A stretch of DNA of 21,777 nucleotides from Promethearchaeota archaeon (GTDB taxonomy: Archaea; Asgardarchaeota; Lokiarchaeia; Sigyniarchaeales; SOKP01), in contig SHMW01000064.1 of the NCBI GenBank assembly GCA_008080735.1, positions 1 through 21,777 on the forward strand, given 5' to 3'. The position numbers and the translations under genes were made by a program. The notes beneath the pieces are model-generated. The model was not told where the DNA came from. It did no database searches and was given only the letters and a program-made list of their open reading frames with translations. Shown piece after piece: positions 3 to 21,777 of the stretch (its first letter is position 1; each line of letters opens with the position of its first letter).

Positions 3-626
3 GCATTTTATGTTGTAATCGTAATTATTCGAAAGGATCTGACATATATTGGAAATAAATTATTTGTCGTGTCTTTTTTCTTGTTTGGTTTATATGGTCT
101 TGTGCTATTTCTCTATGAATTTCCCATCTCACTCTTTATCAATGAGTTTCTTATCAGAGCTTCCTTATTAATCGTGGTCATTGGGGTATTGTTCTTTGTA
201 TTGTCAATGCAAGTTTTTGCTCAAAGCTCCATGTATTTAAAAAAACCTATAGCCATTTTTCTAAGCGCTATAAGTATAGTGGTATGTGTGATAACTTTCA
301 TATTCCCTTACAACGTTTATCAGCTGTATCCTACTATTGAAGCAGATAAAAATATAATCTCTTTGCTTGCTACTGGGGTGTGGAGTTTTGCCTTGATGAT
401 ATACAATTCACTTACCCTATACAACGTGATGAAGGAATTTGATGATTCAGAAATGAAGATGAAAAGGAAACTAAATAGATTATTAATTGCACAATTGATT
501 GGTATCCTAAGCCCTACTATGAGTGTTATTGGAAATATAACTGGAAATACAATAATTCATGCATTTATGTTTGTCTTTTTGGCCATTCCAATGGTATTAG
601 TAGGGTTATTGATTAGGAAACAGTAA
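3..626 (+). CDS. Multi-pass membrane protein, 5'-truncated by the window edge
   Basis: The frame of ORF 69..626 is open back to position 3 (gca ttt tat gtt...), so the true start lies upstream. About 6-7 hydrophobic segments. No family motif recognised. Confidence 0.75.
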   Translation, partial: AFYVVIVIIRKDLTYIGNKLFVVSFFLFGLYGLVLFLYEFPISLFINEFLIRASLLIVVIGVLFFVLSMQVFAQSSMYLKKPIAIFLSAISIVVCVITFIFPYNVYQLYPTIEADKNIISLLATGVWSFALMIYNSLTLYNVMKEFDDSEMKMKRKLNRLLIAQLIGILSPTMSVIGNITGNTIIHAFMFVFLAIPMVLVGLLIRKQ

Positions 627-742
627 GAATATGTTAAACTAATGTAAAAGCTTTAGAAAATGCAATCTAATTCGTAAAATTACTAAATTTTTCGAAATTT
701 CTATCTTTTTTTCTTTATAATTGGATAGTTCATAAGATTCCT

Positions 743-1840
743 ATGGGAGTCAAACTAGATTCTATCATTAGCCGCAGAAAATTGACCTTCGAAGAGTTAA
801 AAGGGAAGATCATTGCGGTCGATGCGCCCAATATCATAATGGGGCTCCTTAATTTCAGCCATAAAAACCCTTCATTCAACTCTAGTACCGATCTGATTAT
901 GGATCGTACTCAGCGCGCTATCTCACACTTGTACGGACTTCTCTATAGGATAAAATTTTATTACTCTAAAGATATATTGCCAATTTTTTGTTTTGACGGA
1001 CGTGTACACCCACTTAAGCGGAAGATCACCAAAAATCAATTAAATGATTTCCGGTTTGCTCAAAAACGCTATAGAAACGCCATCAACAGTAATAATAAGG
1101 AGCTTGCAAGACAGATCGCCCTTTCGAAAGAATATTTTTGGCCCAACCTAATGAAAGAATCAAAAGACCTACTTCATGCTCTCGGGGTGCCCGTCGTCGA
1201 ATCGCCCGCGTCTGCAGAATCGCAATGTGCCCATTTGGTTAAAAAAGGGATCGCTCAGTTCTCAAATTCTCAAGATTTTGATTCTTTATTATTTGGATGC
1301 CCTTATCTGATACAAAACCTTTCTAAATCACGCCGTAGAAAGGTACACGGGAGATGGACCTATAATCGTATCGATCCATTACTTGTTGATCTTCAACAAA
1401 CCCTAGTAGAGCTACAAATCGATCAATTCCAACTGGTAGAGCTAGCCTTGATGCTTGAGACGGACTATTTTGAGGGGATAAAAGGAATTGGCCCGAAAAC
1501 CGCCCTTAAATTAGTCAGGAGATATAAAAGAATTGAGAATATAATCTCTGCTCAAAAGTATGAGTACGATTTTTCAGGATTAGATCACAAGTTAATTAGT
1601 GAGTTTCGCAAATTATTTTTATTGCCCGAAGTAGTAAATTCACTCGATCACCTATGTTGGAACCCCCCCAACAAATCCAGGATATTAACACTATTATGTA
1701 AAGATCATCATCTTAATCGAGAACGTGTAGAGAAACATAGAAATCAACTTAATGATAAATTCTATGAATGTCTTCAATATTTCCAATATGATTTAAACCG
1801 ACCGAAAAGCGTTCAAAAAACTCTCGATATGGTTTTATAA
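743..1840 (+). CDS. fen: Flap endonuclease-1 (FEN1/XPG family), divergent
   Basis: MGV N-terminus, AVDAxN, SHLxGLLYR, PIFCFDG, SQDFDSLLFG, TDYxxGIKGIGPKTALKL (H3TH), and C-terminal PIP-like QKTLD. Confidence 0.92.
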   Translation: MGVKLDSIISRRKLTFEELKGKIIAVDAPNIIMGLLNFSHKNPSFNSSTDLIMDRTQRAISHLYGLLYRIKFYYSKDILPIFCFDGRVHPLKRKITKNQLNDFRFAQKRYRNAINSNNKELARQIALSKEYFWPNLMKESKDLLHALGVPVVESPASAESQCAHLVKKGIAQFSNSQDFDSLLFGCPYLIQNLSKSRRRKVHGRWTYNRIDPLLVDLQQTLVELQIDQFQLVELALMLETDYFEGIKGIGPKTALKLVRRYKRIENIISAQKYEYDFSGLDHKLISEFRKLFLLPEVVNSLDHLCWNPPNKSRILTLLCKDHHLNRERVEKHRNQLNDKFYECLQYFQYDLNRPKSVQKTLDMVL

Positions 1841-1859
1841 TAGAGAAACTTCGCTATTT

Positions 1860-2489
1860 CTATTGTTTTTGATTAATCGAATGAGCCAAAAATCCACCTA
1901 TGAATGCGTGAATAATCATCCAAGGTAATCCAAAATATGCATTTCCAAGAAATGTTCCAGAATCCAAAAAAGATCCCGCACTCCACCCTTGCTTATAAAA
2001 AAATGCCAACGCAATGACAATGAGCCCAAAATAGACTAATGATTGAACCACTCCTGTTAAAGAGGACACATATACCTTTCTTAATCGTGTCTTCTTATCT
2101 AATACTCTAAAGGATACATCCGCAGAGAGACCCGTAAGTAGTCCAAATACACAATATCCAACAACAGACCAAATGCTAATTAAGGCATCATTTAAGATCA
2201 ACTCGAAATAGCTCTCTACGAAAAATCCGATAATCGCATATGGAGTCCATAGGAGAAATCCAATCCCAAATACTTGTGTTTTTAATATAAGATACACCGA
2301 TATGAAGCTGGTAAATAATGAGATCATATATACATAAAACATTGCAAGTCCATAATACGGTTCAAGCACTCCAAAAGGTTGAGTGAGTGAGCCCGCAAAG
2401 AAGTCCCAAAAAAAAATCGAGAAATTCAATAAAACCATCAAACAAAAGCTGCCAATTGCCCAAAATAGGAGTATTTTTTTTCTTTTCAT
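1860..2489 (-). CDS. Integral membrane protein (~6 TM), possibly ECF S-component-like
   Basis: 209 aa, ATG start, Gly-rich hydrophobic helices. The size and the GLxAD segment are reminiscent of S-components (weak). Confidence 0.7.
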   Translation of the reverse strand: MKRKKILLFWAIGSFCLMVLLNFSIFFWDFFAGSLTQPFGVLEPYYGLAMFYVYMISLFTSFISVYLILKTQVFGIGFLLWTPYAIIGFFVESYFELILNDALISIWSVVGYCVFGLLTGLSADVSFRVLDKKTRLRKVYVSSLTGVVQSLVYFGLIVIALAFFYKQGWSAGSFLDSGTFLGNAYFGLPWMIIHAFIGGFLAHSINQKQ

Positions 2490-2663
2490 ACTATGTTAAA
2501 CACCTATATCGTTAAGAACATATATAAATGATTTTCCAATTTAGTGGAAAAATAGATATTTTTGTATATAAAGTTTAAATAGTCCATTTCTAGAAATTAT
2601 TGTTTTGCAGACTTTTTGTTTAAATACTTTTACTGTATCATCTCTTCAAATATTAATTGCGAA

Positions 2664-3284
2664 ATGAAAATAGCTATGACAAAAGTATTTAATATTGCAA
2701 TTAAACAAAAGAGCCAAGATGAGCTGAAATATTCACTTTATTACAATTTCGCGATAGAAAAGGTTTTAAGGTGTGTTTTTCAAACCTTATGCTTCGTAAA
2801 GGATGCTAAAGAAAAAATACTAGTGAGTGGCTTTTCCAGTCAAATTTATCGAGAAATCTCGCAAGAAACGTATATTCAAGAATTTCTCGTGAAAAGTATT
2901 ATTGAAAAGTTTTTACAAGAGCTCCAAAACTTCCGTAAATTTTGGAAATATTGTAATATCAAATGGAATCATAAAAAAGAACGTGTGTTTGCGAAAGTTC
3001 GAATTTATCTTCATAAACTCCATCGAATCGCGCCTGTATTTGACTACCGACGTGCCTGTATAAATCTCAATATATTTCATAAATTTCTAAGAATGGAGCA
3101 CTTTTGGCCTCAGATTTCTACTCAGTTGGCGATTATAATTTACATAACCGATTTAAATGACACCGAGCATGAGGGTCGATTAAGAATTCAAAATATCAGA
3201 ATGCTGATGAATTCATCTGCTTATGCATTTTACGGTATTAGAAAGCGACTAATCGAAAAAGGGGTGCTGTCTATTAATGAGTGA
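2664..3284 (+). CDS. Hypothetical protein; C-terminus resembles a TFIIB/cyclin-type helical repeat
   Basis: Long ORF, ATG at 2664 (or 2676) preferred over TTG 2616. Its stop overlaps the rpa start (ATGAGTGA). C-terminal PQISTQLAIIIYI...IRMLMNSSAYAFYGIRKRL loosely follows the TFB PxxlAAaxlYia...iaxvxxvsxxtirxryxxL pattern. Confidence 0.65.
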   Translation: MKIAMTKVFNIAIKQKSQDELKYSLYYNFAIEKVLRCVFQTLCFVKDAKEKILVSGFSSQIYREISQETYIQEFLVKSIIEKFLQELQNFRKFWKYCNIKWNHKKERVFAKVRIYLHKLHRIAPVFDYRRACINLNIFHKFLRMEHFWPQISTQLAIIIYITDLNDTEHEGRLRIQNIRMLMNSSAYAFYGIRKRLIEKGVLSINE

Positions 3285-4212
3285 AACGCAAGAGGTATTA
3301 CAAAAGCTCACTGAGGCAGGGCTATCTGAAGAGGATTTAAAAGAAGAAATCAAGCGAAAAGAACGCGAATTTCGGGGATTTATAACCACGCAAGGTGCGC
3401 TCTTTCTGATCGCCAAAGAACATGGAATTGAAATCTACTCTCATGATATTGATCCCGAACTTTATGAGGAGGTTCAACGAGATATCGATTATAACGAGTT
3501 TACTATCCCCATCTCTGATCTTAGAGAAGGCCTTTCGAATATTGTACTACTCGGCAAAATCAGCCGTATTTTTCCCATTAGAGAGTTTATCCGTAAAGAT
3601 GGGACGCCTGGAATCGTCGGTTCATTCTTACTCACCGATACTTGGGGCACTACTAAGATAATACTATGGGACCACCATACTAAAATAATGCAGACTGAAT
3701 TTTTCACCATTGGTACGATTCTAAGAGTAATCAACGGCTATTGTAAAAAAGGATTAAAGGAACGCTTAGAAGTGCATTTGTCTAAACAAGGAAAAGTACA
3801 AATAGAACCTGAAGATATTCCCAGCAAGACCAAAAAAGGCTTAGAGGAGATCGAAATAAAAATGGTAGACGCAGGAGGACAATCCTTAGATAAAAATCTT
3901 GTAGAAATGAAAATAGAGGATCTCTTTAACACGAATGGATTTGTAAAGTCAATTTCAGGTGTAATCAAGATAAAGGAGCTTAAAGAGTTTAAGAAGGAAA
4001 ATGGCGAAAGATCGTTTTTGCTGAAATTTCTATTAATTGATCAGACTAATTCCATTAATGTAGCGGTGTGGGGCATGCAAGCAATAAATATTCTTCGAAT
4101 TATCGAAAATGGAATGAGTGTGAAGCTCATTAATATCTTTGTAGATGAAAATGAATTTGAGAAGAGGAAAGAGATCCATTTTACCAAAAAATCTATCTTA
4201 GAGATTATTTAA
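3277..4212 (+). CDS. rpa: Replication protein A-like ssDNA-binding protein (N-terminal helical domain plus two OB folds)
   Basis: N-terminal EEIKRKEREFRGFITTQGALFLIAKEHGI, typical of archaeal RPA N-termini. OB1: ISDLREGLSNIVLLGKISRIFPIREFIRKDGTPGIVGSFLLTDTWGTTKIILWD. OB2: KEFKKENGERSFLLKFLLIDQTNSINVAVWG. Confidence 0.88.
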   Translation: MSETQEVLQKLTEAGLSEEDLKEEIKRKEREFRGFITTQGALFLIAKEHGIEIYSHDIDPELYEEVQRDIDYNEFTIPISDLREGLSNIVLLGKISRIFPIREFIRKDGTPGIVGSFLLTDTWGTTKIILWDHHTKIMQTEFFTIGTILRVINGYCKKGLKERLEVHLSKQGKVQIEPEDIPSKTKKGLEEIEIKMVDAGGQSLDKNLVEMKIEDLFNTNGFVKSISGVIKIKELKEFKKENGERSFLLKFLLIDQTNSINVAVWGMQAINILRIIENGMSVKLINIFVDENEFEKRKEIHFTKKSILEII

Positions 4213-4275
4213 AACACTTTTTGCAACGTCATATGTAAACAATTAATCAATATGTTCTAGTTCTGATGGGTTTTC

Positions 4276-5316
4276 CTACACTTGAATTATTTTTTTCGCG
4301 GCTTTTCTTAATCGATTCATAATCGCTAATCCTAACCGTTTTTCTTTTACCCCTTCCATAATAATAATATCCATATCTTTATTATCGAATTTCCGAAATG
4401 TCTTGAAGATGTTTTTCGCTATAGTCTCAAGATCGCTTCCTATAAACTCAACTGTATCTGCTTGATATTGATGCTTTTGGTTAATCGTAATGATACCGAC
4501 CTTATAGCCTTTTTTTTCAAAATTGGTTGCGATTTCTTGGACCTTCAATTCTATCCTATCAGACTTACCTTCGACTAAGAAAACATCTGCTTTGGGGGAA
4601 TAATGCCTGTATTTCATTCCTGGAGATTTAGCTGCTGCGATTTTTTCATCTGGGTTATATTTCGATTTTTCTATATTATTTTTTCCTAAGATTTTTTGTA
4701 AATCCTCGAACGTGACGCCACCTGGTCTTAATAATGTTATTGGGGTTGTAGTCAAATCGATAACTGTCGATTCAACACCAATATTTGTCTCACCACCGTC
4801 AATGATAGCATCAATCATTCCATTTAAATCATTTATCACATGTTTCGCGGAGGTTGGGCTAGGTCTTGTTGATATATTAGCAGACGGGGCTGCAATGGGT
4901 ACTTTAGACTCATTAATTAAGGACAACGCGATTTTATTTGAAGGCATACGAATTGCCACTGTCTCGAGTCCCGCATTTACAATCTTCGGAACTATGGAAG
5001 ATTTTTGTAATACTATGGTTAGAGGTCCCGGCCAAAAGTTTTCAATTAGCACTTCTACCTTTTGAGGTATGTTTTTTGCCAGCTTTTCCAATTCTAACTT
5101 ATCTCCAATATGTATTATTAGAGGATTGTCGGGAGGTCTTCCTTTTACTTTAAAGATCTTTTCCACTGCACGAGGACTTAACGCATCGGCTCCAAGCCCG
5201 TACACAGTTTCAGTAGGGAAGGCAACTAATCCGCCATCTCGTAATATTTTTGCTGCCTTTTGTATTTTATTCAAGTCGATAGATACAGGATCGACTCTTA
5301 ATATTTCAGTTTTCAA
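4276..5316 (-). CDS. sua5: L-threonylcarbamoyladenylate synthase Sua5 (TsaC2, with C-terminal Sua5 domain)
   Basis: VAFPTETVYGLGA, KGRPPDNPLIIH, FWPGPLT, VAIRMP, APSAN, GVESTV, SPGMKYRHYSP, AIMNRLRKAA. Probable TTG start at 5316 behind an AGGTG SD (ORF open to 5352). Confidence 0.97.
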   Translation of the reverse strand: MKTEILRVDPVSIDLNKIQKAAKILRDGGLVAFPTETVYGLGADALSPRAVEKIFKVKGRPPDNPLIIHIGDKLELEKLAKNIPQKVEVLIENFWPGPLTIVLQKSSIVPKIVNAGLETVAIRMPSNKIALSLINESKVPIAAPSANISTRPSPTSAKHVINDLNGMIDAIIDGGETNIGVESTVIDLTTTPITLLRPGGVTFEDLQKILGKNNIEKSKYNPDEKIAAAKSPGMKYRHYSPKADVFLVEGKSDRIELKVQEIATNFEKKGYKVGIITINQKHQYQADTVEFIGSDLETIAKNIFKTFRKFDNKDMDIIIMEGVKEKRLGLAIMNRLRKAAKKIIQV

Positions 5317-5633
5317 AATAACACCTAAGAGAGAATAAAATTCTACGTTCAATCTGCAAAGCTCTAGGATATAATAGTAAATCGAAAAATAAAGCTATTT
5401 CGATTGGGTCTTCACAATTTTTTAGGAGCTTTTGTTAACTTCGATTTTTCCCAAGAACATTTTCCCTTTATCTGAAAAGCAATAATCTGAAGGCTCCTAT
5501 AGTTTAATCAATAAATTCAATTTTAACATATTCTATGATTAATTGGTTAATTAAGCGAAGTAGAAATTTTTTCCTTTATATATTCCTATTCTCTTTTTGT
5601 CGTAATTAAACTGAAAATGAAAAACTTACATAT

Positions 5634-6182
5634 ATGACTATAAGCATACCCAAGGTATTATATAAGAACAGTATTAGCAGCATTCTTGACGAGATAAGGA
5701 GCTCTTACGGTACACTAACCCGAAGAGGTTATATCTATGGACTCATCGCAGTTGATCAAGACGCAAAAATCATCGCGGTGGATTCACGATTCGATCGGAG
5801 TTTGAATTATTGGGATCTCTCCTCCATCGGTGCTGCTCTCTACGGAGTTGCACGGCAAGGTCAAGATTTTTTCGACGCCGACTACTTGGATCGGGCTTCC
5901 ATCATTTATAATAACCTACGATTATTTGTCAAATCCATCACCAATGTCCAGCTAAATCCACAAGAAAAGCGTGAAATTCTCATAATATTACTTAGCGACA
6001 ATCAAGTCAATATTGGTGTAGCAGTGCTCCAGATGGAACGATTTGCGATGAAGATTAAGACGCAAATCGAAAGCTCGGGCTCCATCAAGAACACACTCAA
6101 AATGAACGAAAGAGAATTGAAAGAACATATTAAAACCTTGAAAAGCGAGATATTCGGCAATAAAATCAGCTCTATTGAGTAA
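5634..6182 (+). CDS. mglB: Roadblock/LC7-domain protein, MglB-like
   Basis: LIAVDQDAKIIA...LSSIGAALYGVARQ...LIILLSDNQVNIGVAVLQM matches the roadblock pattern. Lies directly upstream of an MglA-like GTPase. Confidence 0.8.
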   Translation: MTISIPKVLYKNSISSILDEIRSSYGTLTRRGYIYGLIAVDQDAKIIAVDSRFDRSLNYWDLSSIGAALYGVARQGQDFFDADYLDRASIIYNNLRLFVKSITNVQLNPQEKREILIILLSDNQVNIGVAVLQMERFAMKIKTQIESSGSIKNTLKMNERELKEHIKTLKSEIFGNKISSIE

Positions 6183-6190
6183 GGAGGTGA
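6182..6190 (+). promoter_or_regulatory. Shine-Dalgarno site AGGAGGTGA for the mglA-like gene
   Basis: Abuts the mglB stop and lies 11 nt before the in-frame ATG at 6202. Confidence 0.6.
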
Positions 6191-6201
6191 GACATTTAAC
6201 A

Positions 6202-6855
6202 ATGCTAAAAAATGAGATAGAGGATGATCATGTAAACGATATTCAACGGAACGCAGGCGGCATGATTCTCGGCAATATGATCCAACTCAAGATCGTGTAT
6301 TGGGGTCCTGGAGAGTCTGGTAAGACCACCAACTTTCTACGTCTCAAGGAAAAGTTCGACAGCAGACGTATCACCCGCGGATATTCCATCGAAACTAACG
6401 ACGGCAGGACTTTATGGCAAGATTCAATGTTCCTCTCATTCGATGCCAGTATCAATAAAAGAAATTATTCCATCATCGTCCATGTGGTCACATGCACAGG
6501 GCAAGAGCGATTTCTCTCTACAAGGGAATATGTGTTAGAAGGTGCGGATGGGATTATGTTTGTCGCAGATTCACAGCCAGAATTATTAGAGCAGAATAAA
6601 CGGAGTTTTCGGGAGCTGCTTAGTTTCGCTAGCCCTCGGCGTATCCCTTATATCATTCAATTGAATAAGCGGGATATCGAAGAAAAAGTAAGTATAACCG
6701 AATTCAAGCGGCAATTGGGGCTTCCAAGTGAAAATCAATATGCTGATGGGACCTTAGTGGTATATCCAGTTATCGCGCTCACGGGGCAAAACGTAGCAGA
6801 AACCTTCCGAGACCTTTTAGGGCAAGTTCTCTTCAATGTATTTAATTTTTCTTAG
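6202..6855 (+). CDS. mglA: Small Ras-superfamily GTPase, MglA family
   Basis: KIVYWGPGESGKTTN (G1), GRTL (MglA intrinsic Arg finger), TCTGQ (MglA-type TxxGQ instead of DxxG), GADGIMFVADSQ, NKRD (G4), IALTG (G5). Confidence 0.9.
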   Translation: MLKNEIEDDHVNDIQRNAGGMILGNMIQLKIVYWGPGESGKTTNFLRLKEKFDSRRITRGYSIETNDGRTLWQDSMFLSFDASINKRNYSIIVHVVTCTGQERFLSTREYVLEGADGIMFVADSQPELLEQNKRSFRELLSFASPRRIPYIIQLNKRDIEEKVSITEFKRQLGLPSENQYADGTLVVYPVIALTGQNVAETFRDLLGQVLFNVFNFS

Positions 6856-10002: not shown

Positions 10003-11151
10003 TTAATTAATTTCAAATTGAACGTCCGCATGTCGAACCTTAGAGTTTAACAATTTTAAAACATTGTTGGCAAAATTTTTAAGGTTGTTGGCATATTTTT
10101 GTCTGAGATGTTGTTGCTCTATGAGAAAGTTGTAAATCATCGACCTCGTAGCCTCTGGGCCGTTGTTAATGAAATACCCCATCCAATGAGAAGAATACCG
10201 ACAAATGCGTTTTAATTCGGAATTTGGATACTCATTTTTATTAAATATCAATCGGTTGCACTTTCGGATTGAATTGCCTACTCGTTCGATGTAATCGGCG
10301 ATGGCATACGCATATCGGCATAAAGAGATCATATTTGAGATAATACGTGAATCGCGTGTATTTGCTGACTCTTCGATGGATTCCCAAGCGTTTTGCCAGT
10401 CATCACTCTCTCCATTGTCAGGACTATTTTGGAGCATCGCCACATTGATAACATCACTTAGATCGACATCATGCCCTCTCTTAAGTTTTTTCTTGAAAAT
10501 GCTTTTAAGATCAGAGCCATCTAAATAGCTTCCATTTCCAAAACTCATTCGCTGGTCGAGATCATTTGAAGCAATTAATATTCCCGATTTCTTGTTATTT
10601 GTATCATAATCAATCCAATCTACTTTTTTTTCCCATTCTTTAGTGTCGGGGTTTTTTTTCCAGCCACTTTTTTTTAGAATATGCTCAAATAATCGCAACT
10701 CAAAAATCCAGAAATCAATATCATCGGTAAAACGTTTCCTCCTCCAGTCTCGGGTGGTATATTTTTCCAAATATATTTTTACACAACCTCGAACTATGCC
10801 GTATCCTCCATTTTTCATCGCATCACACGCTTCTTCATAAAATTCGTGCTCGGGGTTGGAGGTAATGTCCATGATTTCGTTGATAATAATTCTCGCTTCT
10901 GTGGCGACCACATCAAGGGGAATATTCCCATCAGAAGGATAGCTTCTCGAGCCCCCATCAAGAAATTTTTTAAATAGCTGTAGATCATTCTCAGGGATTT
11001 TATATCGTGGATTATCAAACATTTGCTTGCTAAATACCAAATGAGTGAGTCCATCCTCATCTTCGTAGATTTCTTCTTGAATTGGAGCAATTTCTCGTAG
11101 ATTATCACCCTTTACTACGGCATCTGCTTTTGAATCCCAAAATTTCAACAT
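10003..11151 (-). CDS. Putative nucleotidyltransferase (Pol-beta superfamily, AbiEii/MenT-like motif layout)
   Basis: GIVRGCVKIYL...RFTDDIDF (hG[G/S]...RxTxDxD) and the later KKKLKRGHDVDLSDV (KxxxxRxxxxDxxD). Confidence 0.65.
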   Translation of the reverse strand: MLKFWDSKADAVVKGDNLREIAPIQEEIYEDEDGLTHLVFSKQMFDNPRYKIPENDLQLFKKFLDGGSRSYPSDGNIPLDVVATEARIIINEIMDITSNPEHEFYEEACDAMKNGGYGIVRGCVKIYLEKYTTRDWRRKRFTDDIDFWIFELRLFEHILKKSGWKKNPDTKEWEKKVDWIDYDTNNKKSGILIASNDLDQRMSFGNGSYLDGSDLKSIFKKKLKRGHDVDLSDVINVAMLQNSPDNGESDDWQNAWESIEESANTRDSRIISNMISLCRYAYAIADYIERVGNSIRKCNRLIFNKNEYPNSELKRICRYSSHWMGYFINNGPEATRSMIYNFLIEQQHLRQKYANNLKNFANNVLKLLNSKVRHADVQFEIN

Positions 11152-11585
11152 AGTACCAACATCATACTTTTAAGAGTTTGTTCAGAAATTTACAATTAAG
11201 TTGATCTTATTTCAATTCTAGCTTAAGATGCTATATAAAATTTAGTATAATTAAGAAATATGTGAACATTCTTCATTATAGAGTAATATATCCAACAAAA
11301 CTTAAACAATTTGAACACAGTGATCCCGTAGGTTGAAAAATGTTTTGCCTCCTTAGTTATGAAAATTGATGCATCAGTTTAATTAATTAAGAATTTAATC
11401 GATTTTAGTCGAAATAATGTTGCAAATTCGTAATTAATTATTCATTTCTGATTCCTTACCAACTTTTTAATCTCCTATATTTAATAATAATTAATTCTAT
11501 TTTACCCACAAGATTACTATTACCCGTGGAATTTCATTTCGGAAATTCAAAATAATCTGAAAATGCAAAAATATATCTAATCATC

Positions 11586-18942: not shown

Positions 18943-19025
18943 ATATAACTCTCTAATTCCTTTATTTTTAGAATATTAGAAAAAAGGCTTTATTATTGCG
19001 AAGATTTTTCTACTCGTGAATTAAG

Positions 19026-19577
19026 ATGGAGTGGTTTACTGCGGATTATCACCTTTCACACAAGAATATCATTCGCTATGTAAATAGACCGTTTGAGAAT
19101 GCAGAGGTGATGAATGATGTTATTCTGAGCAATTTAGAGTTAAGCGTGGATAAAGGTGATGTGGTGTATTATTTGGGCGATTTGACGTTTAAAAAAAAGG
19201 TCGCGCTGCAGTTCTTTGAGCGCTTTCGAAACCTCGAGACTCATTATATCATCGGCAACCACGACAAAGAAGAGATAATTACCATCGCGAAAAAGTATTG
19301 TAAAAGTGTGTCTTACCTGAAAGATATCAAACTAAACGGTCGTAATATAACGCTTTGTCATTATGCAATGCGCGTATGGAATAAAAGTCATTGTAATGCG
19401 TGGCAGTTATACGGTCATTCCCACGGGAATCTCGCCCCCGTTGGAAAACAATTTGATGTAGGGGTGGATTCCAATGAGTTTAAACCCGTTTCGATAACTC
19501 AGATTGAGAAAATAATGGAAAAGGCACCAAATAATATGAATTACATTCCTCCCGAAAAACGGCAGTCAAAACGGTAA
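19026..19577 (+). CDS. Small calcineurin-like phosphoesterase (COG4186-like, common in phages and RNA-repair loci)
   Basis: WFTADYHLSHKNI, YYLGD, GNHD, LCHY, LYGHSH, DVGVD. Confidence 0.88.
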   Translation: MEWFTADYHLSHKNIIRYVNRPFENAEVMNDVILSNLELSVDKGDVVYYLGDLTFKKKVALQFFERFRNLETHYIIGNHDKEEIITIAKKYCKSVSYLKDIKLNGRNITLCHYAMRVWNKSHCNAWQLYGHSHGNLAPVGKQFDVGVDSNEFKPVSITQIEKIMEKAPNNMNYIPPEKRQSKR

Positions 19578-19725
19578 GGTTTCCCAATTTCACTAAAAAG
19601 TCCACCATTTTAGATAAGGTTGATTTGGTTTGTAAATTTTTTATGGTAGTATATGTTAATATTCTTATGCTCTAGATCTTTTTGATGGACCCGTGGCCCA
19701 GACTGGATAAGGCAGCGCCCTCCTA

Positions 19726-19742
19726 AGGTGAGCACCTGAGAA
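19726..19742 (+). other. tRNA intron 1 at canonical position 37/38 (17 nt)
   Basis: AGGTGAGCACCTGAGAA. Removal restores the CT-CCT-AA loop. Relaxed BHB (CTCC/TGAG with one mismatch, internal GGT/ACC stem). Confidence 0.85.
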
Positions 19743-19764
19743 AGGCGAAGACCGGGAGTTCAAA

Positions 19765-19798
19765 TTGACGCTTCACTCATTTCGAGTTGTCATGTAAA
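19765..19798 (+). other. tRNA intron 2 at non-canonical position 59/60 in the T-loop (34 nt)
   Basis: BHB: TTCA/TGTA central helix (one U-U mismatch), two AAT bulges, outer TGAC/GTCA stem, inner ACTC/GAGT hairpin. Removal restores TTCAAAT. Confidence 0.82.
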
Positions 19799-19875
19799 TC
19801 TCCCCGGGTCCGCTATTTCTTATTTACCAAATTAAATCCAATTGAAAATGGTGATTGGTATAATATAGCTTAAGT

Positions 19876-20334
19876 CTAAAAAAGAAGGTCCTTAAACCTA
19901 TCTTTTACGGATAACTTCAGATCTTTAATTAACGCGTCCACCCGAGGTTTAAATTCACTAAAATAATCGGAATTCTTAGTAAAGATATCATAAATCGCAA
20001 ATCGGTTTGTAAATTGATTTAAAACATTCTCAAGCAAGGGTTTTAACACTTTCTCCTCTTTTTCCTCATCTGTTATGCAATAGCCTATGAGTGCCTTTTT
20101 TTCTTTCGGCTCGGTAAACGTTTCAATCGATTTACTGAAGATTACCATCTGATAATCTTCCATTTTAACTAAGTTGAGATCGCCACCAAATAAATCCTTC
20201 GAAAATTCGTCTAAAGTTGAAATGAAGCCTGCTCTGAGGTCGGCATCAATACTCTGATCGTTCTCAGAAGAATAATATTTAATTAATAAGAGGTTCTTCT
20301 GCCCTAAATTGATACCGAATTCTAAAATCGTCAT
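19876..20334 (-). CDS. Longin-like domain protein (Asgard type)
   Basis: DADLRAGFISTLDEFSKDLFGGDLNLVKMEDYQMVI...LIGYCITD...LLENVLNQFTNRF...FSEFKPRVDALI follows the longin b-b-a-b-b-b-a-a pattern. Confidence 0.75.
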   Translation of the reverse strand: MTILEFGINLGQKNLLLIKYYSSENDQSIDADLRAGFISTLDEFSKDLFGGDLNLVKMEDYQMVIFSKSIETFTEPKEKKALIGYCITDEEKEEKVLKPLLENVLNQFTNRFAIYDIFTKNSDYFSEFKPRVDALIKDLKLSVKDRFKDLLF

Positions 20335-20724
20335 AATACAAATTCACAACTGGTGACTGAAGTCTATTTGTTTAAAGGATATATATTTTTAAAAATTTAG
20401 TAAAAATTATTTATATTAGATCTAGATATAATATGCGACTAAATATATCTTTTGGACATGTTTGTAGGGATCGAATCCCGTCTAAAGGCTCCCGAATTGT
20501 CTCAGCTACTTTTTTTGATATTTTAGTTTAGTATTATTCGATTATATCTAATGGAAAGTATTCAAACTAAGTATAAATAGGTTATTAATAATGTAGATAG
20601 GCAGTTTGGATAAGAAAAGCTGTCCTAAATGTGTCTTATAACTCATAACTCCGCATTTATAAATAGAACTAAGATTCCACGATATTTTGGTAAGATTGAA
20701 GACTTCTCAGAGCTTCAAGTACAA

Positions 20725-21225
20725 TTAGAGAGCTCTCTGCTCGAAGAAGTCCTCTACATCTTCTATGAATTTCATGATTCCTCGATCAAAATGCCTGGTT
20801 AATGCATCTAAGTCCCGAAAATCAGGATTCTCGACTAAGATATGCTCTATAATCGAATCGATTCCTTCTAAGCTCGATGGGATTCGATATTTCTCCCAGC
20901 CGTTTTTCCGAATCATATCCCAATATTTTTTCTGGATGCTCTTGTTGTACCCTGCTAACCATACCTCAAATCTGAACTCCTCGTGAAGAAATACCAGCGC
21001 GACTCTCAATTTTCGCGTTTTCAAGAAGGGCGGGTTGAGCGCAAAATAGGTCATATCCATATATCCAAAATAGATATTGCCAGTGACGGCATAGTCCGGA
21101 TATTTGCTTTTAAAATGGGAGCGCAGGGACCCCATATACTCCATTAACCCTCGATATGCGTTCTGGATTATCCCTTTCTGCAGCTGGGCTTTATATTCCA
21201 GCATACTCTCATGAAATGATACCAT
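20725..21225 (-). CDS. Conserved hypothetical protein (DUF7000-like as recalled; unverified)
   Basis: YxGYMDMTYF...LRVALVFLHEEFRFEVWLAGYNKSIQKKYW motif, familiar from bacterial and archaeal hypothetical proteins. Confidence 0.75.
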   Translation of the reverse strand: MVSFHESMLEYKAQLQKGIIQNAYRGLMEYMGSLRSHFKSKYPDYAVTGNIYFGYMDMTYFALNPPFLKTRKLRVALVFLHEEFRFEVWLAGYNKSIQKKYWDMIRKNGWEKYRIPSSLEGIDSIIEHILVENPDFRDLDALTRHFDRGIMKFIEDVEDFFEQRAL

Positions 21226-21293
21226 AATATAAGGATATGTGCGATCTTGATTAAATCTATTTATAGTCGAAAAGCGCTATAAAAAAAATTCCA

Positions 21294-21556
21294 CTATATA
21301 TTTTTTTTTTGAAGCTATATTCTTTGTCTTTCCAACATCTCCTGGAAATCGCTCTCTGGTGATATCATCTATTTCAATCTTCTTTCTGAAGCTATATTCT
21401 TTGTCTTCTCAGTCTGAATTTCTAGGCGGGTTACTAAGCCTTATTATTTCAATCTTCTTTCTGAAGCTATATTCTTTGTCTTAGTAAAGAAGCCGACTTG
21501 GGAAGAATTGGAAACAAAAATTTCAATCTTCTTTCTGAATTTAAACCAAATTGAAT
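21294..21556 (-). CRISPR. CRISPR mini-array: two full 37-nt repeats, two half-conserved terminal repeats, three spacers
   Basis: Full repeats ATTTCAATCTTCTTTCTGAAGCTATATTCTTTGTCTT at 21371-21407 and 21446-21482. Partial copies at 21310-21330 and 21520-21539. Unique spacers of 40, 38 and 37 nt. On the minus strand the repeat ends CTTC-AGAAA-GAAG-ATTGAAAT (hairpin plus 8-nt handle). Confidence 0.9.
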
Positions 21557-21777
21557 ACAAAATAATAATTTATTATTTATCTAGTAATAGTATTTAATTC
21601 TTTAAACAATAAAACTTCACTAAAAATATCATTAATAAGATCTTAACATTATTCCAAATAATTGGAAAAGTTGACAAATAAGGTAAACACATTTAAGAAT
21701 ACCTCAATTTTCGATTGTTGCTAAAATAAAATTAAACAAATTTATTTTTAATCTATTATGTTTAAGTCCATTCAAAA
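21557..21777 (-). promoter_or_regulatory. Probable CRISPR leader
   Basis: Very AT-rich, no ORF in the track, located 5' of the array in the ATTGAAAT-3' orientation. Confidence 0.55.

Follow-up and report, generated by a model that had tools for sequence, protein, structure and literature searches.

The 21,777-nt stretch of a Promethearchaeota archaeon analysed here (the window; contig SHMW01000064.1, assembly GCA_008080735.1) holds, near its end, a short CRISPR array between 21294 and 21539. This is probably a genuine, small secondary array of the archaeal chromosome, located in a CRISPR-Cas island beside a predicted type III-B and CARF locus, with transcripts that would be processed by Cas6, and it is most likely static. 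The worn repeats at its two ends probably mark an old array that is no longer growing. An earlier note on this DNA had described a genuine array read on the minus strand, with no cas genes in view and served by Cas proteins in trans. The array and its orientation are borne out by the anatomy of repeats and spacers and by the terminal decay seen in relatives. The supposed lack of neighbouring cas genes is not: just past an assembly gap, the same scaffold carries type III-B and CARF genes from 22041 onward.

Anatomy of the array

The array comprises three spacers (37-40 nt), two perfect 37-nt repeats and a partial repeat copy at each end. The 37-nt unit, ATTTCAATCTTCTTTCTGAAGCTATATTCTTTGTCTT on the plus strand, is found in exact copies at 21371-21407 and 21446-21482; on the minus strand the repeat reads AAGACAAAGAATATAGCTTCAGAAAGAAGATTGAAAT, ending in ...ATTGAAAT. 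The first 20 nt of the plus-strand unit recur exactly at 21520-21539 and its last 20 nt at 21311-21330, the latter preceded by T10, and the spacing from unit to unit is 77, 75 and 74 nt. The retained parts are mutually 100% identical (37/37, 20/20 and 21/21). A CRISPR array requires at least two near-identical direct repeats of 24-48 nt that separate unique spacers of similar length, and this arrangement is present here. The repeat matches no CRISPR-DR family in Rfam, and Tandem Repeats Finder reported nothing, as expected of interspaced repeats. Neither array flank contains further decayed repeat copies when scored against 500 shuffles of the flank, in which the best chance match was 24/37 and the usual one 19-20.

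Read on the minus strand, the array begins with a leader-side remnant (21520-21539) that retains repeat nt 18-37 (TTCAGAAAGAAGATTGAAAT) and is 20/20 identical to the full repeats. Spacer 1 (21483-21519, 37 nt) has only this truncated copy upstream. It is followed by an exact full repeat (21446-21482), spacer 2 (21408-21445, 38 nt), which has a full repeat on both sides, the second exact repeat (21371-21407) and spacer 3 (21331-21370, 40 nt), the one nearest the trailer. The terminal repeat (21294-21330) is intact over nt 1-21 (21310-21330) and continues as A10 and TATATAG. Both ends are as the earlier note had them, with 20 nt of the 3′ part kept at the leader side and 21 nt of the 5′ part kept before a poly-A run at the trailer.

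The full repeat can form a hairpin of 4 bp only (CUUC/GAAG; −2.5 kcal/mol, z −1.9), placed directly before the 8-nt ATTGAAAT tag. The leader-side remnant keeps three of the four hairpin pairs together with the tag, in agreement with its earlier description as most of the hairpin plus an 8-nt handle, and all three spacers have the ATTGAAAT tag upstream, so that in sequence each does retain its 5′ handle.

The two partial copies differ in the state of their missing halves. Compared with the full repeat, the leader-side copy matches at 25/37 positions and the trailer copy at 30/37. In the leader-side copy only 5/17 positions of the 5′ part match, and because of this low match repeat nt 1-17 are counted as truly replaced. 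In the trailer copy, 10/17 of the 3′ part match, and AGAAAGAAGA has become A10. This run could be the product of three G-to-A changes; the composition of any A-run scores nearly as high, so a decayed and a truncated trailer copy look alike by this measure.

A type III-B and CARF locus beside the array

The window corresponds to C64:1-21777 of a 4.1-Mb metagenome-assembled genome (MAG) in 140 contigs. Two N10 gaps (21778-21787 and 25367-25376) interrupt C64, which is a scaffold, and no cas genes were seen in the window because it ends exactly at the first of them. Profile matches show that cas and CARF genes begin on C64 264 nt past the window end. Three of them lie on the minus strand: csx14b (C64:22041-22814), a Cas_NE0113/Csx14/Crn1-like CARF gene; a Csx1-like CARF gene (C64:22907-24268); and csx14a (C64:24332-25336), a second Csx14-like gene. 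On the plus strand follow Cmr1 (C64:25583-26479) and the N-terminus of Cas10/Cmr2 (C64:26515-26613), of which the first 33 codons are present before the gene runs off the scaffold. The array is positioned downstream of the CARF block (csx14a, csx1, csx14b) and in the same direction, and the block adjoins cmr1 and cas10.

On these matches the locus beyond the gap is classed as type III-B. An orthologous and complete type III-B operon occurs at G022:C89, with the order csx14a, cmr1, cmr2, cmr3, cmr4, cmr5, cmr6 and cas6. This is the only orthologous locus with good similarity among 160 genomes of the class, and G022 is the only one of 60 family members with an orthologous cmr1.

The earlier note had proposed looking past 21777 and across the genome for cas loci and for a cognate cas6; cas loci and candidate cognate Cas6 genes are both found. 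In addition to the CARF and cmr genes of C64, contig C17 encodes a type I-B locus (cas1, cas2, cas4, two copies of cas7, cas5, cas3 and Cas6). It ends in an AT-rich leader and one repeat, which differs from that of the present array at 2/37 positions, and the contig stops 23 nt into the first spacer. Contig C82 opens with a partial type III-A operon (C82:1-3525) that consists of the tail of csm3, then csm4 and csm5, and lastly another Cas6. We considered C64 and C82 as the two parts of one operon and dropped this arrangement, as the orthologous locus in G022 shows C64 to belong with a complete cmr (type III-B) operon and C82 is csm (type III-A). Cas genes are thus present in the genome (type III-B and CARF on C64, type I-B on C17, partial type III-A on C82), and those of C64 are adjacent to the array.

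Two Cas6 paralogues, 34% identical to each other, score above the PF10040 cut-off (50.6 and 45.6 bits; cut-off 25) and fall below that of TIGR01877. The Cas6 of C17 (42230-43108) follows the type I-B cas3, and that of C82 (2704-3525) closes the partial csm operon beside a SIR2-TPR gene. By these profile scores a cognate Cas6 is predicted in the genome. The CRISPR inventory of this genome now includes an adaptation-competent type I-B, a partial type III-A and a partial type III-B system.

The genes of the window itself include FEN1, Sua5, subunits of 2-oxoacid:ferredoxin oxidoreductase (POR) and an LSM protein, and no virus hallmark genes were seen in it. Because of these housekeeping genes, we place the array in the host chromosome and not in a virus, and the likeness to viral mini-arrays that had been suggested for it falls away.

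Repeat family and end decay in relatives

The repeat belongs to a class 1, Cas6-processed family ending in ...ATTGAAAN, and its 3′ part has exact matches in Promethearchaeota MAGs. Long arrays of the same family (16 to >100 repeats) are present in the related genomes G005, G022, G004, G024 and LW40_87. An alignment of 13 repeat copies shows conserved columns 14-37 and variable columns 1-13; the leader-side remnant (nt 18-37) lies within the conserved part.

In the long arrays of relatives, the degenerate repeat is the last one when the array is read towards ...ATTGAAAT, and it decays in its 3′ part. The minus-strand orientation of the present array is supported because the terminal repeats of relatives decay at the end that this orientation predicts. 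The form of the decay varies: in G005, ~23 nt of the 5′ part survive in an additional terminal copy, the terminal repeat of a G032 mini-array has lost exactly the 8-nt tag, and those of LW40_87 and Zod578 carry changes within the tag. Degeneration of the trailer repeat is thus the usual pattern, as the earlier note had assumed. First repeats are also altered in relatives, at the opposite side: the first 10 nt are changed in the first repeat of a G005 mini-array, and the first repeat of the LW40_87 mini-array begins with ATTC instead of GTTG. Even heterogeneous mini-arrays of relatives keep the 3′ 13 nt of the repeat perfect. A mirror-image rule of end decay therefore recurs in relatives, in which the first repeat wears at its 5′ part and the last at its 3′ part.

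Viewed against these sequences, the array appears to be an extreme case of a common pattern, in which the end repeats lose the half that no CRISPR RNA (crRNA) needs. The trailer end is wholly ordinary. The leader end is less usual, because the adaptation machinery normally keeps the first repeat intact.

Short arrays or solitary repeats stand beside type III and CARF genes in G005, G003, G020 and G032. In G005, of the same genus, solitary or paired 37-nt repeats alternate on one strand with toxin-antitoxin cassettes (G005:C6:20001-32000, at 175-6669 of this stretch). The cassettes, three of MNT-HepT and one of MazE/VapB-PIN, are located downstream of a type III locus, and the stretch resembles an array with toxin-antitoxin genes as spacers (compare the mini-arrays of Shmakov et al. 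2023). The complete genome G032, of the same order, has a mini-array of seven repeats between csx1 and cmr1 (G032:C1:114001-134000, at 10949-11437), and its repeats have fixed-position differences from those of the 53-repeat main array 8 kb away. In G024 (C48:7001-14800), an array of >100 repeats consists of long blocks of repeats ending in ...GAAAC or ...GAAAT; the spacers of at least two pairs of adjacent units begin alike, a hint that blocks of that array have recombined or been duplicated.

Loss of the leader and probable arrest of acquisition

The leader-side flank (21541-21777, minus strand) is AT-rich, occurs once in the MAG and ends at the N10 gap that is also the window end. Neither the type I-B leader on C17 nor the leaders of G005 and LW40_87 resemble it significantly. 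We find no leader with a promoter and no intact leader-repeat junction; instead, the array has lost its leader, as in leaderless static arrays. Canonical integration by Cas1-Cas2 is unlikely because repeat nt 1-17 and any recognisable leader are gone. The earlier description of the array as frozen for acquisition agrees with this loss of the canonical junction, and the array probably no longer acquires spacers.

Two other features of this end were examined and rejected. At 21541-21556 (minus strand), UUCAAUUU in the flank could form 8 bp with the tag's AGAUUGAA (−5.1 kcal/mol), but as a special structure of the truncated copy this pairing is no better than in shuffles (z −0.9). Insertion of an insertion sequence or a miniature inverted-repeat transposable element into the first repeat has no support, the flanks being single copy in the MAG; an element inside the scaffold gap is possible.

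A possible inversion through the first repeat

A candidate for the missing half of the first repeat lies on the other side of the CARF block. The 12-mer AAGACAAAGAAT at C64:25513-25524 (plus strand) is an exact copy of repeat nt 1-12, located 58 nt before the start of cmr1, ~4 kb from the array and in inverted orientation. The TAAC that follows it (to 25528) matches repeat nt 13-17 with one deletion and one mismatch. This nearby copy suggests, and does not prove, an inversion of ~4 kb (about 21541-25528) with a breakpoint between repeat nt 17 and 18, which would supplement the account of a static secondary array. The leader and repeat nt 1-12(16) would now stand before cmr1 and point at it, and the leaderless array would have been left downstream of csx14b.

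The strand and side of the fragment are those that an inversion predicts, and the fragment complements the kept nt 18-37. Directly before it stands ...AAGG, as before the type I-B array's first repeat. The 4.1-Mb genome has only two occurrences of the 12-mer outside the array, giving a chance of ~0.005 that one falls within 5 kb; the two-edit 17-mer criterion has 15 other matches, for a chance of ~0.01-0.04. Undoing the inversion restores a canonical layout, with the array, the leader, csx14a, csx1, csx14b, cmr1 and cas10 reading away, and in G022:C89 csx14a is on the same strand as cmr1 and cas10.

However, the match was found post hoc, and a similar two-edit 16-mer at C17:46128, within the cas7 coding sequence, is clearly due to chance. 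At the presumed breakpoint the 5 nt are not preserved intact, and the ends of the segment have neither inverted repeats nor microhomology, only AT-rich chance pairs. No detectable similarity connects U2 with the leaders of C17, G005 and LW40_87. In G005, csx14a, csx14b and the mini-array have the present order, csx1 of G032 is divergent from cmr1, and the orientation of the middle contig of C64 depends on the scaffolding. We therefore treat the inversion as a tentative explanation that falls somewhat short of being favoured. It is doubtful that it also exchanged regulatory contexts, with the leader and nt 1-12 placed before cmr1-cas10 and the 20-nt remnant kept by selection for the first crRNA.

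If the inversion is real, it would be a neat case of recombination within a repeat that froze an array and rewired a cas locus. If the exchange of regulatory contexts and the selection on the remnant hold as well, it would also represent a natural experiment that defines the minimal unit of Cas6 site and tag, and a CRISPR leader promoter would have been recruited to express effector genes.

Expression and use of the spacers

For the static secondary array proposed here, transcription of the minus strand would come from the AT-rich stretch of ~500 nt that separates csx14b from the array (21541-22040) or from read-through of the CARF genes. Cas6 would cleave each repeat 8 nt before its end. The two spacers with intact repeats upstream, 2 and 3, would then yield crRNAs with a AUUGAAAU 5′ tag, to be loaded into the type III-B complex and possibly into those of types I-B and III-A. 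The crRNA of spacer 1 would rely on the 20-nt remnant, which may or may not be cut. Loss of the 3′ part of the terminal repeat, which would be of no use to any crRNA, is commonplace for terminal repeats. Past the terminal repeat, a T8 run on the minus strand (21281-21288) is a candidate archaeal oligo-T terminator that could end the array transcript; from its first to its last T it lies 13-20 nt beyond the end of the terminal repeat copy (21294) and 22-29 nt beyond the last conserved repeat base (21310). On balance we lean slightly towards expression and use of at least spacers 2 and 3.

Several observations weigh against the array as a functional part of this island. From the conserved core the remnant has lost A15, G16 and C17, and with them one base of the stem. 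Where repeats are weakly structured, Cas6 often depends on their 5′ part, as does Pyrococcus furiosus Cas6. Because of these lost core bases and this requirement, spacer 1 may be unusable. The link from the array to the type III genes spans an N10 gap that may differ from 10 nt in true size, the middle contig was oriented by the scaffolder, and the remainder of the type III-B operon is absent from the MAG. Exact-word searches of IMG/VR with six 19-20-nt spacer halves gave no match that extends: the hits were seed-only chance matches (22-27 of 37-38 nt upon extension) or there were none. Exact sub-words of spacer 1 found no protospacer in JGI metagenome contigs. Logan contigs from two marine-sediment runs (X1 and X2) of one study cover part of the stretch, and they leave 21492-21777 uncovered, so that the leader-side junction comes from this assembly alone; their overlap with the array consists of spacer 3 and the trailer, with spacers 1 and 2 outside it. 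Exact searches of public genome and metagenome contigs returned no independent copy of the leader-side junction.

A relic that has lost its promoter and leader, is neither transcribed nor processed and has yet to decay would share several of these features: no recognisable leader, a truncated first repeat, three spacers only, no protospacers in the exact-word searches, and a main array of the family that lies elsewhere and is seemingly large (unitig depth 564 against 7.2). However, the retained parts are 100% identical, and decay has touched only those two parts with which every crRNA can dispense. The array is also co-directional with, and downstream of, the CARF genes, from which read-through could transcribe it, and heterogeneous mini-arrays of relatives keep the 3′ 13 nt of the repeat perfect. 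We consider a dead array unlikely.

Assembly support for the junctions

The trailer junction and spacer 3 are independently confirmed by a 931-nt Logan contig of run X1, which aligns to 20700-21399 with zero differences; it enters the full repeat at 21371-21407 from the trailer side. The hole in Logan contig cover at 21492-21777 proves nothing either way for the leader side. An exact search of metagenome contigs with the 23-nt core of spacer 1 did not find it. In run X1, a 37-nt unitig of a repeat variant (on 21371-21405) has a depth of 564, compared with 7.2 for the single-copy flank. Because of this difference in depth, the data suggest that the sample holds one or more large arrays of the repeat family that are missing from the MAG.

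With many related arrays in the sample, the join of the half repeat to the flank (half repeat|TTTAAACC...) might represent a chimeric or population-mixed path through a longer real array. The contig break lies only 237 nt from the junction, and the Logan contigs of two runs of the same study leave 21492-21777 uncovered. Such a path is improbable all the same: a de Bruijn path requires that reads contain each k-mer across the junction, the flank and the repeat share no k-1 overlap, the flank is single copy, and the comparable junction at the other end is confirmed by the Logan contig.

Spacer matches and regulation

No spacer has a self-target beyond chance anywhere in the genome. We also compared the spacers with four cas-locus stretches (both sides of the array on C64, C82:1-4300 and C17:38541-58480), and partial complementarity did not rise above shuffled-spacer controls. 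The best partial identities were 19-25 of 37-40 nt, that of spacer 1 on C17 (25/37) equalling and not exceeding the top control, and the longest exact spacer run was 12 nt, within the control range.

Regulatory crRNA-like guides that repress a cas, toxin or other host gene by partial complementarity are very improbable here, even though short arrays and solitary repeats are frequent near type III, CARF and toxin-antitoxin genes in relatives and such elements regulate cas genes and toxin-antitoxin cargo genes (bioRxiv 10.1101/2023.03.03.530964), since the array has three full-length spacers between perfect repeats, partial matches to cas loci within the range of shuffled controls, no genome-wide self-target beyond chance and no adjacent toxin-like gene.

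Comparison with known systems

Type III loci are known to share arrays and Cas6 with a resident type I system, as in Pyrococcus furiosus and Saccharolobus islandicus. The present locus resembles these in that the type III-B genes have no cas1 or cas2 of their own in view, the repeat belongs to the family of the type I-B array (2/37 differences) and Cas6 is encoded elsewhere. It differs in that a short private array stands beside the CARF and cmr genes, and the remainder of the cmr operon is unassembled.

Among documented cases, locus F of Saccharolobus solfataricus comes nearest, a leaderless and invariant array of 88 spacers that is inactive in acquisition (Garrett et al. 2015, PMC4390879, an overview of CRISPR in the Sulfolobales). 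Loss of the leader is common to both. Locus F has 88 spacers and the present array three, the loss here cuts through the first repeat, and the static state of the present array is deduced from its structure.

Two further kinds of short array are less similar. CreA of CreTA (Li et al. 2021, as cited in Shmakov et al. 2023) and crRNA-like mini-arrays (Shmakov et al. 2023, bioRxiv 10.1101/2023.03.03.530964) have one, often shortened spacer between diverged repeats and partial complementarity to a nearby promoter. They share with the present array a very short repeat-spacer unit among cas genes and a degenerate distal repeat. The present array has three spacers of normal length, perfect internal repeats and no complementarity to the cas locus above shuffles; neither a promoter-complementary spacer, in the cas loci compared, nor a single spacer between diverged repeats is seen, and the likeness to CreA/CreR guides that had been drawn for it is not sustained. 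Mini-CRISPR arrays and solitary repeat units borne by viruses reside in the genomes of viruses or plasmids and are directed against competitors (Medvedeva et al. 2019, PMC6858448; review PMC11656645). They likewise have one to few spacers and no adaptation genes alongside, whereas the array described here is not on a viral or plasmid genome but on a host chromosome, where it separates housekeeping genes from a type III-B locus.

The trailer end is no different from the degenerate terminal repeats of ordinary arrays, which show the same pattern of a kept 5′ part and a lost 3′ part (G005, G032, LW40_87 and Zod578), and what is unusual is the mirror-image loss on the leader side. This is not a new kind of element but a known kind of array, in which the possible inversion is the only unusual point. 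Short static secondary arrays next to type III loci were already known, as were terminal repeats that have degenerated, and CRISPR biology changes little with this case. The analysis corrects the impression of an orphan array without cas genes and adds a type III-B locus to the inventory of an Asgard genome, and the three spacers can be used to seek viruses of Promethearchaeota.

Downstream region

ARAGORN found no tRNA in window positions 19000-21777, multi-intron archaeal tRNAs being often missed by this program. Orthologues of the next gene in G022, G011 and G006 have no repeats nearby, and hence show no link to CRISPR in these relatives; in the window this gene, a member of DUF7000 (20725-21225, minus strand; PF22526, E 2e-58), lies downstream of the array on the same strand.

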